NCBI GenBank assembly: GCA_964388035.1
Contig: CAYLZE010000093.1
Coordinates: 1 to 20,765, forward strand
DNA from: an uncultured archaeon
Lineage (GTDB): Archaea; Asgardarchaeota; Lokiarchaeia; Sigyniarchaeales; SOKP01
Reading direction: 5' to 3'
DNA length: 20,765 bases
In this document: positions 5,653 through 13,936 of the stretch, one piece after another
Numbering within the stretch: the stretch's first letter is position 1
How the letters are laid out: every line of letters begins with the position of its first letter
Notes under the pieces: generated by a model
Seen by the model: the letters and a program-made list of their open reading frames with translations, nothing else
Database searches by the model: none
Told to the model about the DNA's origin: nothing
Program-made: the position numbers and the translations under genes

Positions 5653-8088
5653 TTAAATAAAGTCTTGAATCGTATTTCTGATCTGAACAAATTTTTTATA
5701 ACTTTCTTTAAAATCATCCCGTTGTAATGCTTCTAAGGCTTCTTTATTTAATAGATCGAACTCTATTTTAAGTTCTTCAAAACGATAGAGTTCAATTAAT
5801 CTATAGTTAAAATTGCGAATTTCATCTTTCATCGTCCGTCCAACGTTCCATTTGATTAAATCTCCCACTTCAGCGATTATGGTTTCATCAGGGAAAGTAT
5901 CTATGGGATCTTTTATAAAATGAACATAATACAGAGGGATGATATCCTCGAGAACAACGCCTTCTAGAATCCTACCAAATCCATTTGTAAAAGGTAATCT
6001 TGCCTCATAAAAACCTTCTTGATCCAAAATTTCTAAATTTGAATGGGTTTTGATGATTTTTAATTGATCTTTTAGCATGAATATGATCGTTCTGGACACT
6101 CTTCTTCTCAGATTATAATTTAACTCCACCTTTTCTCTCGGAGCTATATTATTGAATTGCCAATTAATCTCTAGACCTTCTTTTTTGGGAACCCTTTCTG
6201 GCATATCCTTGACTTCTTCTCCATTCAATTCGATTTTTTGAATCTCGAAATTAAAAGGTATAATATCTGTAATTATGGCTTCTTCAATATATTCATCAAA
6301 AGGATTTTCTAAACCCGACATCACTTGATATATCGATTGTTCTTTTTCCTTATTGCTTTGTTCAACTTTTAATTCCTTATCTAATTCCAATGTTTTTCCC
6401 GATTTGCTCACGATTGCTACTTTGTTTGTGATTTCTTCTTTAATTTCAACACGGTGTTCTTCTAATAATTTTCCCAATTCTCTTAAAATTTCGTTTGGAT
6501 CATCTGAAATATCTCCCAATACATCACCCACGGAAAATTGTTCAATTAGCGGAAGCACTTCCTCTTGATTGAATTCAATAATTGTCTCTAATTCTCTAGC
6601 TTTTTGATAATAGTGTTGTTGCTCTTGTTTTTCTTTCTCCTTTCTTGCTTTCAATTTCTCATTTTCTAAAATAAGGGTTTCCTTTATCGAGAGATACTTG
6701 TTCTTCAAAATATCATCCTCTAAAGAGGTTGAGATAGTAAGGAGTTTTTCACATAAATCTAAGGAGGTAGTAAAATCACGTTTAGCATGCGCTTTTTCTA
6801 ATAGCTGTTCCAAATTCCTGACTTCCGTTAGGAGAGATTCTTCTTGTTCTTTTTGAATATCAATTTTCTTAAATTTCTCTTCCAGTGTTTCCTTTAAAGT
6901 GCTGAACTTTTGGAATAAATCATCTCTTTCTATCTTTTTGGATAAATCAAGATTCTTTTCACATAATGCAATGGCTTCACGATAATGTTCAGTTGCAGTA
7001 GTTTTTTCCATGTTATTTTCATTTTCAATAATTTGAGAGAGAATTTCTCTTTTTCTTTCGGTAATATCTCTTAAATTTTCATATCTTTCACTTAAATTAG
7101 AATTTTCGAGGTACTTGGAAAGTATGATAATTTTATCGCATTTTTTTATGATCTCTTCATAATTTTTCGCTTCTTGATCATTCTTTATTTGTTCTTCCAA
7201 TTTTGTAATGCTTTCTAAAGCATTTTCTTTCTCTCTTTTTAAATTTTCAAGATTTGCTTGAAGTTCTTGTTCTATTTCCATGTATTTTTTGGTTAAAGAA
7301 GGTTCTCTTATGATTCTGGTAATTTTTAGTATTTCCTCACATGTGTTTGATGCTTCCTCGAATTGGCCATTTCTTTCGCGTTCCTTGAGAGTTTCCTCTA
7401 ATTCCTTGATCTTTTTAATGGATGCTATTTTTTTCTCAATATTATTTAAGTTATTTCGGTATTTTCTTAAAATTTCAAAATTCTTAACGGATTGTGAAAT
7501 TTCAATTATTTCTCGATATAATGCGGCTATAGATTGAAAGTCTCTGTCTTCTTCTTTTTTTTTAACTTTTTGTTCTAAATCTTCAATGTTTTTCATGGAA
7601 TCTTCGAATTTCTTTTTATTATAAATGAGTTCTTTCCGCCTATCATAGAGTCTCTTATTAAATACCATATCATCATCTAGACGAATATATTCTAACATTT
7701 CATCGATCTTATCAATAGCTTGATCAAACAGCAATTTTGATTCTAATTCTTTACTTTCCTTGAGACCTTCTTGTACTACTTCAATTTTTTCATCATCTAA
7801 CTTTTCTTCCACGAATGAGAATTTATAATCAAACCGCCTTTTTTTTTCCTCAATTATTTCACAAGAACTAATAATTATATTTCCATAGACATTCTTCCAA
7901 CTGGATAGTTCTGGATGAAATCCCGCCTTTTCTAAGCGCTCTGTTGCATCAATTCGCTCCACTTTCTCAATTACTTGGTCTATAAAAGATTTTTTGTAAT
8001 GCCTTATTAAAAAAGACTTAATCTCCTCTTTCCGGGTGGGAAAAGTATCCTGATATTTTACAAAAATCTCTTCTATTTGTTCACTCAT
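5653..8088 (-). CDS. Large helical-repeat protein (MIT/TPR-like three-helix units) with two C-terminal Ig-like (DUF11-like) beta-sandwich domains
   Basis: Five to six units of 'LE..l......(F/Y).ea...ce.il.ls..l....l..kY', then two copies of 'N.......v..DIIP.........l.W........e...nY.L'. No signal peptide or TM segment visible. Confidence 0.7.
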   Translation of the reverse strand: MSEQIEEIFVKYQDTFPTRKEEIKSFLIRHYKKSFIDQVIEKVERIDATERLEKAGFHPELSSWKNVYGNIIISSCEIIEEKKRRFDYKFSFVEEKLDDEKIEVVQEGLKESKELESKLLFDQAIDKIDEMLEYIRLDDDMVFNKRLYDRRKELIYNKKKFEDSMKNIEDLEQKVKKKEEDRDFQSIAALYREIIEISQSVKNFEILRKYRNNLNNIEKKIASIKKIKELEETLKERERNGQFEEASNTCEEILKITRIIREPSLTKKYMEIEQELQANLENLKREKENALESITKLEEQIKNDQEAKNYEEIIKKCDKIIILSKYLENSNLSERYENLRDITERKREILSQIIENENNMEKTTATEHYREAIALCEKNLDLSKKIERDDLFQKFSTLKETLEEKFKKIDIQKEQEESLLTEVRNLEQLLEKAHAKRDFTTSLDLCEKLLTISTSLEDDILKNKYLSIKETLILENEKLKARKEKEKQEQQHYYQKARELETIIEFNQEEVLPLIEQFSVGDVLGDISDDPNEILRELGKLLEEHRVEIKEEITNKVAIVSKSGKTLELDKELKVEQSNKEKEQSIYQVMSGLENPFDEYIEEAIITDIIPFNFEIQKIELNGEEVKDMPERVPKKEGLEINWQFNNIAPREKVELNYNLRRRVSRTIIFMLKDQLKIIKTHSNLEILDQEGFYEARLPFTNGFGRILEGVVLEDIIPLYYVHFIKDPIDTFPDETIIAEVGDLIKWNVGRTMKDEIRNFNYRLIELYRFEELKIEFDLLNKEALEALQRDDFKESYKKFVQIRNTIQDFI
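6660..7765 (-). repeat. Protein-level tandem helical repeats (~55-70 aa), diverged at DNA level
   Basis: LEQKVKKKEEDRDFQSIAALYREIIEIS, LEETLKERERNGQFEEASNTCEEILKIT, LEEQIKNDQEAKNYEEIIKKCDKIIILS, NENNMEKTTATEHYREAIALCEKNLDLS, LEQLLEKAHAKRDFTTSLDLCEKLLTIS. Boundaries are approximate. Confidence 0.75.
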
Positions 8089-8123
8089 TAAATCACTTTT
8101 TTATTTTTAGGTTTTTGAAATGG

Positions 8124-9833
8124 TTATTGATTTTTATCCCACCTACTTCCATTATTAAATTCATCCAATAAATTTACTATTTTTGAATATATATTTAATG
8201 CTTCAGATAAGTTGCCATCATGAAATGAGTCTTTTCCCTTTTCGTTCAATTTTTGAATATTTATTTTCAAATGCTCAATTGCTTGTAATATATTCTTTTT
8301 TTCTGTCTCTTTCTCGATAAATAGCGTCTCTTCTCCTTGGATTTTTTCTAATTCGCTGAGATAATAATCAATTAATCCGGTATTATTTAGAATCTTTGCC
8401 AATTCGATGATATCTCGGCAAATGTCCATAGCTTTATTAAATTCTTTATATTTAACAGCACTATCCAGTCTCTCCTCTAAAAGACGTACCTCTTGTTCTT
8501 TTTTTACATGATCTTGAGAGAGTGTTAAGAGTTCTTCTTTTTTGCGTGATAATCTTGCTTCCATTTCCGTGAGATTATTGGATTTAGCTAATTCAATATA
8601 TTTAGAAACTTGAGGTAAGAAATCATCTATCTGCTTTTTATTTAACGTCCTATTTTCTTTTTTCAGCAAACCCTCAATTTCGTCTAATAACACGGATTTT
8701 GCTTCTTTCATTACTTGTTGAGAGGAGTGCGCATATTTTTCTTCAAGTTCCGCCCATTTCTTTATCAATTCGTCATCATTTAAAGAAAATAATAAATCCC
8801 ACGCTTTATCAAAAATGTTTGCGGCTTTTTTTATATTATTCATGGATATTGCTTGAATATATTGTTTCTCAAGTTCATCCAATTCTGCTTTGATTTTCTC
8901 TCTCTTGCTCCAATATTCCTTCCATAAGGTTTGATCTTTCTCTATTATATATTTTGCTGCGGGAATTTTTAACAGATCGCAATATTTTCCATAATCTTCT
9001 ACGTAGATGAGTACCAATTCATGAGCTTCTTTAATTTCATCTTTTTCAATTAACTCATTGTACTGTGTCTTAAGACTTACACTCCTTTCTCGGGCTTCTA
9101 TCATTAATTGCTGAGGATTGTATTTTCCGGTAAGTTTAGCAATAAACTCTTCCTCTTCCTTAATAATTAAATATAAATCGGCGGCTTTCGCAAGATCAAT
9201 AATTTTTCTTGCATTAATTACCGCTTCTTTATAATTCCCAATTCTATAATTATTTCTTTCGGTAATCCTTAAATTATCGATTTTAGAGATTACATCTATT
9301 TCATTTTTATGCTTGAGTTCCCTTATACGTTCTAAGAGAAATTCCTGATCGTTTTCTAAGGCTTTATCTTCGATTTTACGAGCTAAATCGATAATTTCTT
9401 CTGATTTTAGAATGGCTTCCTCATATTTCTGCATCTCGATAAGTTGTTCTACTTGTTCTTTCATGTCTTTGATTGATGATAGGATCGGCGTGATTTTATG
9501 TTCTTGACTAAGAATACATGCATCTAATTGTTCTTTCTGAAAGTCAAAGTTCTCTAAAAAATCCATGGTTTCATAGCCCGATTCAATAGTAATGTTTCTT
9601 AAAATTTTTTTATCTGGAAACTCTTCTAAAAATAACTCCCGAATATTCGGTATATAGAGCTTCAAGCTATTTGATGCATTTTTTCCAATCCAAATAAACA
9701 TCTTTTTTTTATTATAAACATAAATCGCTAAAATATTATACAATGTAAATAACCCTACGCCAGGGGCGGAATCAATTTGCTTAAATTTCCCAGAATAATT
9801 TAGATTATAAATATCTAGGTTTTTAACTCCCAA
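8124..9833 (-). CDS. Gelsolin-like N-terminal domain fused to helical (MIT/TPR-like) repeats
   Basis: aa ~1-100 contain ILAIY...MFIWIGKNAS...ITIESGYETMDFLENF, matching the gelsolin consensus 'iyvWiGk.as ... v.eG.E...F...F'. The rest is helical repeats like those of the downstream gene. TTG start. Confidence 0.7.
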   Translation of the reverse strand: MGVKNLDIYNLNYSGKFKQIDSAPGVGLFTLYNILAIYVYNKKKMFIWIGKNASNSLKLYIPNIRELFLEEFPDKKILRNITIESGYETMDFLENFDFQKEQLDACILSQEHKITPILSSIKDMKEQVEQLIEMQKYEEAILKSEEIIDLARKIEDKALENDQEFLLERIRELKHKNEIDVISKIDNLRITERNNYRIGNYKEAVINARKIIDLAKAADLYLIIKEEEEFIAKLTGKYNPQQLMIEARERSVSLKTQYNELIEKDEIKEAHELVLIYVEDYGKYCDLLKIPAAKYIIEKDQTLWKEYWSKREKIKAELDELEKQYIQAISMNNIKKAANIFDKAWDLLFSLNDDELIKKWAELEEKYAHSSQQVMKEAKSVLLDEIEGLLKKENRTLNKKQIDDFLPQVSKYIELAKSNNLTEMEARLSRKKEELLTLSQDHVKKEQEVRLLEERLDSAVKYKEFNKAMDICRDIIELAKILNNTGLIDYYLSELEKIQGEETLFIEKETEKKNILQAIEHLKINIQKLNEKGKDSFHDGNLSEALNIYSKIVNLLDEFNNGSRWDKNQ

Positions 9834-10007: not shown

Positions 10008-11027
10008 TTAGAGACTAAGTGAATACTCTTTTCTTGGTTTTCCCCCTTTTTCATTTTTTATAACTTTTTCTTCAATTATCCCTTCTACGAGTAGTACATC
10101 TAATATTTCTCTCAACTTTGCACCTCCAATTTTTGACTTAATCCCAATTTCTCTGGTATTGATGGCATTATTTTCGCGAATGATATCGATAACTTGTTTA
10201 AGGGTATCTTGAAATTCCATTTTAACTCTTTTAATGATGGATTTAACTTTTAAAAACTTTTTAGCAGTTTCAACGAATTGAGAACTTGTGAATCCATCAA
10301 AATGAAAAATATCGTTATCCAAGAATAAAATAGAATTAAAATATACATCATCAATTAATATAAGACCATCATTCACAAGCATGTCGTTATATCTGACAAT
10401 TTGGCAGGTTTTTTCTGAAGTTTGAACGATACTCAATCGTATGCGTTTTAAGATTCCGGTTATTAAGTCAAAATAATTACTAATCTCATCAAAGTCGTTA
10501 TTTGAAAAATATAATTCAATATTTACACCTCGGAGGTATGCATTATAAAGGGCAGGTTCTATTCTATCTAAAAACAAGGGGGGTAGAGAAGAAAGAAAGA
10601 TCTCATTAGTTGAATTATCAATTAGTTTATAAAAATTTTCGTAAGCAAGATTTTCGTCAGAATAATGATAGAACGTTGAATGCCTAAAACATTTACCTCG
10701 ATCACTTTCTTCCGCCTTCACGTGCTCTTCCAATTTATAAATACGTTCTTTATTTTTTTTATAATGCTCGTCCAAGACTCTGCTTAAAGCTATTTTAGGA
10801 TCTATACGATAGAATTTTTTATTTTTCCCTTTCGATGAAAAAACTAATCCCATTTCTTCGAGGATGGAGAGATTATAATTTACCTGGGAGTAAGAATAAT
10901 TTAATTTCTCTTTAATATCTTGAACGGTCCCAAATTTATACTCTATGATGTAGTCATATAGTTGAATCTGAATTTCGGATAAACCGATATCACGTAAATA
11001 TGAATGATATTTTTTGAGCATTATCAA
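10008..11027 (-). CDS. TrmB-family transcriptional regulator with an additional C-terminal HTH
   Basis: LRDIGLSEIQIQLY...SQVNYNLSILEEMGLV...FYRIDP (TrmB wHTH), coiled coil, effector domain (IDNSTNEIFLS...AYLRGVNI), and C-terminal INTREIGIKSKIGGAKLREILDVLLVEGII...GGKPRKEY (second wHTH). ATG at 11021 is an alternative start. Confidence 0.85.
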   Translation of the reverse strand: MIMLKKYHSYLRDIGLSEIQIQLYDYIIEYKFGTVQDIKEKLNYSYSQVNYNLSILEEMGLVFSSKGKNKKFYRIDPKIALSRVLDEHYKKNKERIYKLEEHVKAEESDRGKCFRHSTFYHYSDENLAYENFYKLIDNSTNEIFLSSLPPLFLDRIEPALYNAYLRGVNIELYFSNNDFDEISNYFDLITGILKRIRLSIVQTSEKTCQIVRYNDMLVNDGLILIDDVYFNSILFLDNDIFHFDGFTSSQFVETAKKFLKVKSIIKRVKMEFQDTLKQVIDIIRENNAINTREIGIKSKIGGAKLREILDVLLVEGIIEEKVIKNEKGGKPRKEYSLSL

Positions 11028-12091: not shown

Positions 12092-13936
12092 ATGGAAGAA
12101 AAAAGCTCAATACTGTTTTCTGACCGTGCTTCATGGGAACTTCCCACTCGACACGACAGGGGATGGGTTCGAACTGCTCAATATATTACCTTAAAAGATG
12201 GCATCAAAAATGCTATTTATCTCTACCTTCCTAAAGACTTAAGGGAGGATGAAAAAGTACCCGCTATAATCATTCCTACTCCTTACTTCAGCATGGCAGA
12301 ATTTCGGTCGCCATTTTTTGAAAAATTAGCTGAAAAACTTGCAATTGGTGGACAAGGAGAATGGGCTGAAGATTTTGCCCGTTTTGGCTATGCCACAGTA
12401 TTATGGGATCTGCGGGGAAGCGGAGCTTCTTATGGTCGTAAGCTTTCTATCATATTGCCGGATACGGTACGGGACACGACTGAAATTGTTGATTGGATTG
12501 TACACCAGCCATGGTCCAACGGCAAGGTGGGAGCTACAGGTATTTCAGCTAGAGCAATGGCCACTGAATGGATGATTTTATCCAAACATCCATCACTCAA
12601 GGCAATTGTGCCCCGCTTTACTGTCTTTGATATTTATACTGCTACTCTTGCGGGAGGACTAAAAGCAAGCAGGTTTATTCAGGACGTAGGAGCCATACTC
12701 CGAGCCATGGATGCAAATCAATTGCATGACATGCCCGAAAATAAAATAGCAAAAGGGCTTCTTCGATTGGTTGGAATGAAAATCATGCGCATGGACGAGG
12801 ATCCCGAAGGAACGATGCTTGCTGAAGCCGTACTCGATCATGCAAGCAATGAATATTTTGATCGTGATCTCATGGCTGTTACTTACCGCGATGATACTTT
12901 ACCTAATTCATCAATCCCTGCAACTATTGATACTCAAAGCCCATTTAGCCGAGCAAAGGATATGGAGGCTTCAAATGTTGCTATTTACGGTTATACAGGT
13001 TGGTTTGATGGTGCTTTTCCCCGCGAAATGATTAACCTATACATGACTGTTCGGACTTCTGGAAGCAAGTTAATTATTGGTCCTTGGAGCTATCACGCCC
13101 GATTCAACTCGAGTCCCATAATAAAAGGAAAGCAAGCCACGGACTTCGATCAAACTGCGGAAATAATCCGTTTTTTCGATTACCATATTAAAGATATCGA
13201 TCACGGCATCAGTGGTGAGAAAACCATCCATTATTATACTATGGGCGAGGAAAAATGGAAAGCGACTGATACTTGGCCCCCTGATGGAGTAGAGAATATT
13301 TCGTATTATCTCTCTGCTGCAAATATGTTGAGCTGAGATAAGCCCGAAAACGAAGAAGCTTCTGATTCATATCAAGTAGATTACACCGCGGGGACCGGAG
13401 TCTATTCACGTTTCGGTAAGCATCTTGCTGGCGGAAGATCTCCAGTACGATATCCTGATAGGGATAAGAGAGATAAAAAACTTTTAACCTATACATCCCA
13501 TCCCCTCGATATTGATATGGAGATTACAGGACACCCCTTCATAACTTTATACGCGAGTTCCACTAGCACGGATGGTGCATTCATTGTTTATCTCGAGGAT
13601 GTAAGCCCCGATAATAATATCGTTGTTGTGACAGATGGGTGTTTGCGTGCACTTTTTCGTAAACTAAGTAGTGCGAAAAAACCATATTGGCAAGCTGGAC
13701 CTTATCATACTTTCAATAAAGCTGATGCAATGCCTCTTGTACCCGGTGAAATCGCTGAATTATCTTTTGATCTATTTCCAACTTCTTATCTCTTTAAACA
13801 AAATCATTCAATCAGATTAGCATTGTCTGGAGCTGATAAAGATAATTTCGTATTTGTTCCTCAAGATGAACAACCAAAATTACAAGTTTATCGAGATTTT
13901 AAACACGCTTCCTATATAAGTTTACCGAAGATATAA
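12092..13936 (+). pseudogene. CocE/NonD (X-Pro dipeptidyl peptidase S15-like) hydrolase interrupted by one in-frame TGA
   Basis: ORFs 12092..13336 and 13517..13936 share a frame. The segment between them translates cleanly (S*DKPENEEASDSYQVDYTAGTG...LLTYTSHPLDIDMEITGHP), giving 614 codons. Motifs: PTPY, DLRGSGASYG, QPWSNGKVG, GWFD, IIGPW and the PepX_C-type C-terminus (HSIRLALSGAD). Confidence 0.85.

Follow-up and report, generated by a model that had tools for sequence, protein, structure and literature searches.

As far as is known, actin in Asgard archaea is regulated chiefly by gelsolins and profilins, which have so far been studied as single polypeptides. The closest described systems are the 1DGelX proteins, in which a gelsolin domain is joined to a domain X predicted to be helical or a coiled coil (Akil et al. 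2020, PMC7444086). The Thor 1DGelX binds actin with a Kd of 7.7 uM and needs no calcium to sever filaments (PMC7444086), and two or three 1DGelX genes have been reported per Lokiarchaeal genome (PMC9433394). Lokiactin drives protrusions and crawling, and in L. ossiferum it brings down an ARF GTPase and five gelsolin homologues in co-precipitation (PMC13716822); from the same organism comes B35_GelX, an example of GelX, in which a gelsolin domain is reported to be combined with disordered parts and an X domain (bioRxiv 10.1101/2025.11.30.690169). Here we analyse a pair of adjacent genes, A and B, in a stretch of 20,765 nucleotides (the window) from an uncultured archaeon (assembly GCA_964388035.1, contig CAYLZE010000093.1). 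Like 1DGelX, gene A encodes a single N-terminal gelsolin domain followed by a helical, non-gelsolin part, a layout specific to Asgard archaea; unlike 1DGelX, its X part resolves into an array of three-helix bundles of the size of TPR or MIT units plus a tail, and the gene has a dedicated downstream partner, B. We put the chance at about 50% that A and B form a two-subunit, actin-linked scaffold, encoded by an old two-gene operon of Loki-type Asgard archaea.

The two genes and their parts, with positions in the window and the basis of each assignment, are:

8124-9833, minus strand: gene A, 569 amino acids, with a TTG start as in its orthologues
9534-9833, minus strand: A residues 1-100, divergent gelsolin-homology head (AlphaFold2 (AF2) model, Foldseek and Protein Data Bank (PDB) profile matches)
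8289-9533, minus strand: A residues 101-515, connecting helix and helical rod of about six units of 60-70 amino acids (repeat hidden Markov model (HMM), shuffle control and family consensus)
8154-8288, minus strand: A residues 516-560, two-helix tail, homologous to the tail of B (hhalign)
8089-8123, minus strand: 35-bp spacer between A and B, with a Shine-Dalgarno-like GTGAT at 8092-8096, a few bases 5' of the ATG of B
5653-8088, minus strand: gene B, 811 amino acids, with an ATG start, downstream of gene A
7798-8088, minus strand: B residues 1-97, alpha/beta head, called N-dom (AF2 and 40-sequence alignment)
6583-7797, minus strand: B residues 98-502, rod of six three-helix units (AF2)
6334-6582, minus strand: B residues 503-585, alpha/beta linker subdomain, which always accompanies the beta module (AF2)
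6070-6333, minus strand: B residues 586-673, first Ig-like beta-sandwich (AF2, predicted local distance difference test score (pLDDT) above 94)
5791-6069, minus strand: B residues 674-766, second Ig-like beta-sandwich (AF2)
5656-5790, minus strand: B residues 767-811, two-helix tail (helices 767-789 and 793-810; AF2), homologous to the tail of A

An earlier reading of this DNA from its letters alone (the sequence-only reading) had noted two co-oriented genes 35 bp apart and suggested an Asgard origin. Both observations hold: the two open reading frames (ORFs) lie on the minus strand on either side of the spacer, and the names of homologues place the host as a Loki-type Asgard archaeon (Promethearchaeota). 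The window is AT-rich (G+C about 26-41%), and its genome contains four actin-family genes. As read from the sequences, the same arrangement of GGTGA(T) plus spacer is also present at orthologous A/B loci. Neither protein contains a hydrophobic segment of membrane-span length, and a Pfam scan of A and B returned zero matches above cut-offs.

First, the pairing of the two genes is conserved. We compared 48 loci that carry the gelsolin-head subfamily of A. At 40 of these, the gelsolin-headed gene is followed directly, on its own strand, by a rod-family gene that lacks a gelsolin head, at gaps of -41 to +126 bp that include several 4-bp overlaps; the adjacency in related genomes that the sequence-only reading had proposed as a check is thus there. 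The other 267 ORFs of these loci gave zero matches to the family HMMs, and in the window's own genome the A-family rod HMM matches 4 of 4149 open frames: A, B and a paralogue, and, weakly, one more. The closest relative, L001, retains the entire neighbourhood; L002 and L003 retain only the pair, with different flanks and, in L002, a 4-bp overlap of A and B. Pairs of the window's type (gelsolin-rod followed by N-dom-rod-beta) stand among different flanking genes in L001, L002, L003, L008 and L009; this type is present in six genomes. Elsewhere the partner is a head-less rod-beta protein or a head-less rod with a tail, the latter downstream of gelsolin-rod genes of about 350 and about 540 amino acids. 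A scan of genome contigs gave 23 loci, all in metagenome-assembled genomes of uncultured organisms. The TrmB-type regulator encoded upstream in the window (10008-11027) was not counted in the unit, being syntenic only in L001 and not in L002 or L003.

Second, the two genes have descended separately. When 80 rod sequences were compared by BLAST, 79 matched best to a gene at the same position in another genome and not to their own operon partner, so A and B are old, separately evolving lineages that have been held together, not recent duplicates. The lineages have diverged to about 25-30% identity. Alternatively, the genes could have stayed adjacent through an old tandem duplication and a common promoter, with each protein working by itself as a modular adaptor: A would act on actin and B, through its N-dom and Ig-like domains, on another target, with no complex between them. 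A and B are indeed paralogous in rod and tail, heads have been swapped freely in the family (gelsolin, N-dom, vWA plus zinc ribbon, or none), the rod lengths of partners do not co-vary, and the complex prediction described below supports a contact weakly. Yet tight or overlapping adjacency in most of the compared loci, maintained despite this divergence, is typical of subunits made in fixed proportion, and the controls of the complex prediction scored 0.00; we consider independent paralogues a rather doubtful account of the pair.

Third, A carries the gelsolin-like head that the sequence-only reading had seen in it. This stretch, approximately the first 100 residues, is the best-conserved part of the A family. 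The AF2 model of A 1-112 (pLDDT 92.8), with strands at 6-11, 17-19, 34-39, 44-49 and 79-84 and helices at 55-71 and 90-93, confirms at the level of prediction a gelsolin-fold domain, in which a central mixed beta-sheet lies between a long and a short helix. In a Foldseek search of the PDB, the top 50 matches are all gelsolin, villin, adseverin, fragmin or Asgard gelsolins, the best being Thor ProGel (7c2f_B, E 3.5e-7, template-modelling (TM) scores 0.65/0.80). A profile of the head built from 22 relatives and searched against all PDB sequences matches the same ProGel chain at E 9e-5, Loki 2DGel (7whg_G) at E 4.5e-4 and adseverin at E 2.5e-3; a gelsolin-fold match to residues 1-100 was thus found by structure and by sequence. 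W48 is invariant across the family, and A shares G50 with most relatives. The two would correspond to the W-x-G core ('DWG' motif) that distinguishes gelsolin from cofilin domains (bioRxiv 10.1101/768580), although the Asp of that motif was not located. Compared with ProGel (7C2F chain B), gelsolin and villin, the head of A has the same fold and appears to keep this core, but identity is just 16-21% and the head sits on a long rod. Going by its family, the head would bind actin.

Gelsolin-fold domains also serve as protein-protein modules, as in Sec23/24, and A and B could on that basis belong to a non-actin assembly, a GTPase-linked regulatory or trafficking machinery akin to ArnB and Sec23/24. 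We judge this unlikely, since the nearest sequence and structure matches of the A head are actin-binding gelsolins and Sec23/24 chains are absent from the Foldseek top 50. The Sec23/24-ArnB core, in which a beta-sandwich is inserted into a vWA trunk and a helical domain follows (with a zinc finger and a gelsolin domain as well in Sec23/24), is not seen in the pair either: vWA domains and zinc fingers are absent from A and B and are confined to distant members of the family, the domain order is unlike that of Sec23/24, and the ArnB-type matches of the A/B family, including similarities to ArnB_C and 8s05, all fall below significance thresholds.

Fourth, A and B share a repeat unit and a tail. 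The sequence-only reading had proposed a three-helix unit common to both proteins and a similar pair of helices at both C termini, and each proposal is upheld by profile comparison. An HMM made from the six units of B scores 18.3 on the helical part of A, compared with a best of 4.4 among 500 shuffles (mean -15, s.d. 7.3), and matches A at 120-161, 319-366 and 449-500; the units conserved within the A family include 118-175 and an 'EAH...IP...W' unit at approximately 263-310. By BLASTP, the match between A and B is marginal (E 0.003). The tails, A 516-560 and B 767-811, align by hhalign with a probability of 98.3% (E 2.6e-14).

In the full-length AF2 model of B (94-row alignment, mean pLDDT 91.0, predicted TM score 0.52), residues 99-502 alternate between short helices of about 17 amino acids and long helices of 36-45, forming six three-helix bundles in which each long, outer helix is common to two adjoining bundles, with a flexible break in the rod at 404-414. 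The comparison with spectrin and alpha-actinin drawn in the sequence-only reading survives in part. As in spectrin, helices run unbroken from one predicted bundle of B into the next; but the units of A and B, at 59-67 amino acids rather than about 106, are roughly half as large, the head is a gelsolin domain, and Pfam scans of the two proteins gave no signal of spectrin, calponin-homology or filamin families. The likeness to spectrin, alpha-actinin, plakin and filamin, cross-linkers of actin that combine an actin-binding head, a rod of repeats and an end that dimerises, is therefore one of design, an analogy and not homology. A side-by-side pairing of whole A and B rods was considered and dropped, because the length of the A rod varies about ten-fold and that of B does not.

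By sequence, the three-helix units look TPR-like. Each bears a TPR-like signature and profile matches to consensus TPR proteins reach E 2.9e-4; TPR_1 matches 6 of 63 units, all below its cut-off. Unlike TPR proteins, B would form an extended array and not a superhelix, and its whole model compares with the TPR domain of LGN at a TM score of about 0.1 and a root-mean-square deviation (rmsd) of 20-30 A. Each unit also superposes on MIT domains, at an rmsd of 1.4 A, a resemblance that bears on the idea, raised in the sequence-only reading, that the units are MIT domains binding ESCRT-III tails, so that the pair would join actin to ESCRT-III. We regard this as very improbable: the sequence signature is TPR-like, and the best match to a curated MIT model, PF21126 (E 0.021-0.027), reaches 14.6-14.9 bits against a cut-off of 23.1, with the Pfam TPR and MIT matches to the units all lying below cut-offs.

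Beyond what the sequence-only reading had described, B has the N-dom, the alpha/beta linker at 503-585 and the outer helices common to neighbouring units. The N-dom is modelled as a compact alpha/beta domain (pLDDT 87-97; helices 3-11, 20-37 and 49-55, strands 42-47, 62-65, 71-79 and 82-91), and D47 and W64 are invariant in the alignment of 40 sequences. A PDB profile search and Pfam scans of each member gave neither a PDB match nor a recurring family for this domain; a search of the ESM Atlas gave a weak, winged-helix-like lead (TM 0.42-0.55). Of 301 Asgard genomes sampled, 5 carry an N-dom, and these all belong to the family of the window's genome.

At the other end of B, the AF2 model places strands 514-519, 552-561 and 566-574 and helices 520-524 and 531-545 in the linker, and across the family the 'Linker' HMM co-occurs with the beta domains. 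The two beta-sandwiches noted in the sequence-only reading are present as seven-stranded, all-beta domains in the full-length model (586-672 and 675-766), and by hhalign each is a homologue of the other (97%, E 1.2e-10). As tandem sandwiches with a 'D-I-I-P ... W ... Y' pattern they show a weak likeness to DUF11/CARDB-type Ig-like (E-set) domains, but they differ from DUF11 proteins in being cytoplasmic, without signal peptide or transmembrane segment, and in having a specific linker before and a helical tail after them. Pfam DUF11 matches 5 of 67 beta-module members (best E 0.013) and a GBS104-like Ig family matches 7 of 67, all sub-threshold; the ESM Atlas neighbours of the module all belong to the DUF11 clan, with feature scores of 0.80-0.85 and TM scores of 0.3-0.4. 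A PDB sequence-profile search with the linker-beta module found nothing meaningful, and fold searches with the whole of B (VIA wide, and Foldseek against the PDB) are filled by matches to the helical rod and so carry hardly any information on the N-dom or the beta module.

Fifth, we predicted the complex of the two proteins from three chains, B 1-165, B 486-811 and A 101-569 (the scored partner), with custom alignments. The interaction prediction score from aligned errors (ipSAE) is 0.44 (0.43-0.45 in three runs), compared with 0.00 for the best control; at least 87% of the contacts are common to the runs, and the pLDDT of the partner is at least 76. Replacing B 486-811 takes the score to 0.00, so the modelled contact of A is the C-terminal module of B. 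In a benchmark, 58 of 80 solved complexes attained the ipSAE mark, as did 2 of 110 mismatched pairs. The interaction between A and B that the sequence-only reading had suggested modelling thus reaches the mark at the level of weak support. Because the operon evidence provides a fair prior, we count the score as modest support, not proof, that A binds the C-terminal module of B.

Several points weigh against an actin-linked complex. The band of ipSAE at or below 0.60, in which the score of 0.44 falls, contains 7 of the 80 solved complexes and both of the mismatched pairs that pass, and is more often wrong than right when no likely prior is available; the use of three chains and custom alignments also departs from the calibration of the predictor. 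Among orthologues, the A rod has anywhere between about 1 and about 10 units, and the B rod keeps to roughly 5-6. The A head is divergent enough that Pfam PF00626 fails to detect it (the same model detects six other proteins of the window's genome above its cut-off and a seventh weakly), and its invariant Tyr38 aligns with the Asp of the 'FID' of ProGel. Since the head is both too divergent for PF00626 and altered at this position, its ligand could differ from actin. Loss of the Asp also suggests that the calcium switch is absent; with this acidic site missing, calcium independence is expected, as in 1DGelX. A is at most a candidate orthologue of the assayed Thor 1DGelX; strong matches to the A head are confined to two families (f1 and f2) of one order. 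Within the window's own genome, the published description of GelX (gelsolin domain, disordered linker and X) is fitted better than by A by another gene (contig C16, 11611-12801, minus strand), whose 396-residue product has a gelsolin domain, then a low-complexity linker rich in Pro and Ser, then another domain, and ends in a SAP/Rho_N-like part.

Weighing these points, we still prefer the two-subunit, actin-linked scaffold, which would work as follows. The first gene supplies a gelsolin-headed rod and the second a related rod without a gelsolin head which, in the window's lineage, bears a lineage-restricted alpha/beta head and a C-terminal module of linker, two Ig-like sandwiches and two-helix tail. 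The gelsolin head of A would bind Lokiactin, probably without calcium control, and the chains of TPR/MIT-sized three-helix bundles would act as spacers. Through its rod or tail, A would associate with the C-terminal module of B, giving a complex with an actin-binding head at one end and with the B head and Ig-like domains offered to a further partner. Such a heterodimer may serve as an actin-linked scaffold, cross-linker or anchor. Of the rod-like, actin-linking heterocomplex that the sequence-only reading had imagined, the folds, the conserved pair and a weakly predicted contact stand, and we infer actin binding, the heterocomplex itself and the scaffold role. That reading had also taken the architecture to be undescribed. 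In this it went too far for gelsolin plus a helical X, published as 1DGelX (PMC7444086), and agrees with our literature search as regards the partner gene and its architecture: in that search, no paper came up that mentions the three-helix units, the Ig-like module or a partner gene.

Finally, A and B belong to a wider modular family. Searched against 1.84 billion representative proteins, a profile of B orthologues finds 251 clusters at 50% identity with E at or below 1e-3. We scanned 186 family proteins with domain HMMs, which gave the following architectures:

Gelsolin head with beta module: 31 of 186
N-dom with beta module: 14 of 186
Gelsolin head without beta module: 29 of 186
N-dom without beta module: 30 of 186
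Other head or no head, with beta module: 63 of 186
Neither head nor beta module: 19 of 186

A fusion form, in which gelsolin head, rod, linker, two beta-sandwiches and tail follow one another, accounts for 31 clusters, so the parts that are divided between A and B here work in one polypeptide elsewhere. Other members carry a vWA domain and zinc ribbons as the head, and some are plain rods. The beta module is found in 88 of 301 sampled Asgard genomes.

In this wider family, three proteins of about 1100 amino acids (P0107, P0116 and P0131) combine vWA, zinc ribbons or RING-like fingers, helical repeats and a C-terminal linker-beta module, a domain set that recalls ArnB and Sec23/24. In other Asgard lineages (L053:275-10183, L054 and L055:4338-13587), double-beta-module proteins of about 528 amino acids lie in a conserved cluster with a second copy, a leucine-rich-repeat protein (366 amino acids), a 634-residue TPR-like protein, a longin-Ras/Roc GTPase fusion (350-355 amino acids) and long coiled-coil proteins. 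A longin-Ras GTPase fusion of 318 amino acids is also encoded two genes upstream of the A/B-type pair in L002 (L002:4880-5836, GCA_016839555).

Two further N-dom genes are present in the window's genome, one with repeats and membrane segments and one with an HExxH domain. In the product of the first (contig C76, 7293-9071, plus strand), the N-dom precedes two rod units, a charged coiled coil and several hydrophobic stretches that look like membrane segments, and the C terminus is helix-hairpin-helix-like. The gene has an apparent ATT start, 8 nt after a GGTGA, and no ATG, GTG or TTG ahead of the conserved 'SEQI' start. The B orthologue at L008:1451 (G294, contig C66) apparently begins with ATA ('ATA GCC GAA CAA', read as (M)AEQ) directly after GGTGATTTAA. 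Together, the two suggest the use of AUU and AUA start codons in these archaea. The second N-dom gene (contig C80, 15450-16778, minus strand), in which the N-dom is fused to the HExxH domain, lies downstream of two genes of about 685 amino acids with longin-like N termini and near two leucine-rich-repeat genes (neighbours at 11520-21054). Apart from the pair, the window encodes an X-Pro dipeptidyl-peptidase (S15) catalytic domain and a PepX_C domain in separate ORFs on the plus strand (12092-13336 and 13517-13936), 180 bp apart, which may be a split or frameshifted gene.

The N-dom, the linker with its double Ig-like module and the tail are uncharacterised conserved modules, which the 251 clusters show to be widespread. 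Because the gelsolin subfamily of A escapes PF00626, domain censuses based on Pfam or InterPro may undercount the gelsolins of Asgard archaea. A tentative and more far-reaching proposal, which we would hold only as speculation, is that Loki-type Asgard archaea possess a family of heteromeric cytoskeletal scaffolds with interchangeable heads (gelsolin; N-dom, vWA plus zinc ribbon, or none) on spectrin-like chains of miniature bundles, joined through the Ig-like and tail module and perhaps regulated by the linked longin-Ras GTPases; the layout of spectrin, alpha-actinin and filamin, with an actin-binding head, a repeat rod and a pairing end, would then have been invented independently in these archaea, before eukaryotes. 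If the two-subunit scaffold itself is borne out, some Asgard gelsolins would operate as scaffolds of two subunits that combine long spacers with Ig-like domains, and would thereby follow the principle on which the actin cross-linkers and anchors of eukaryotes are designed.

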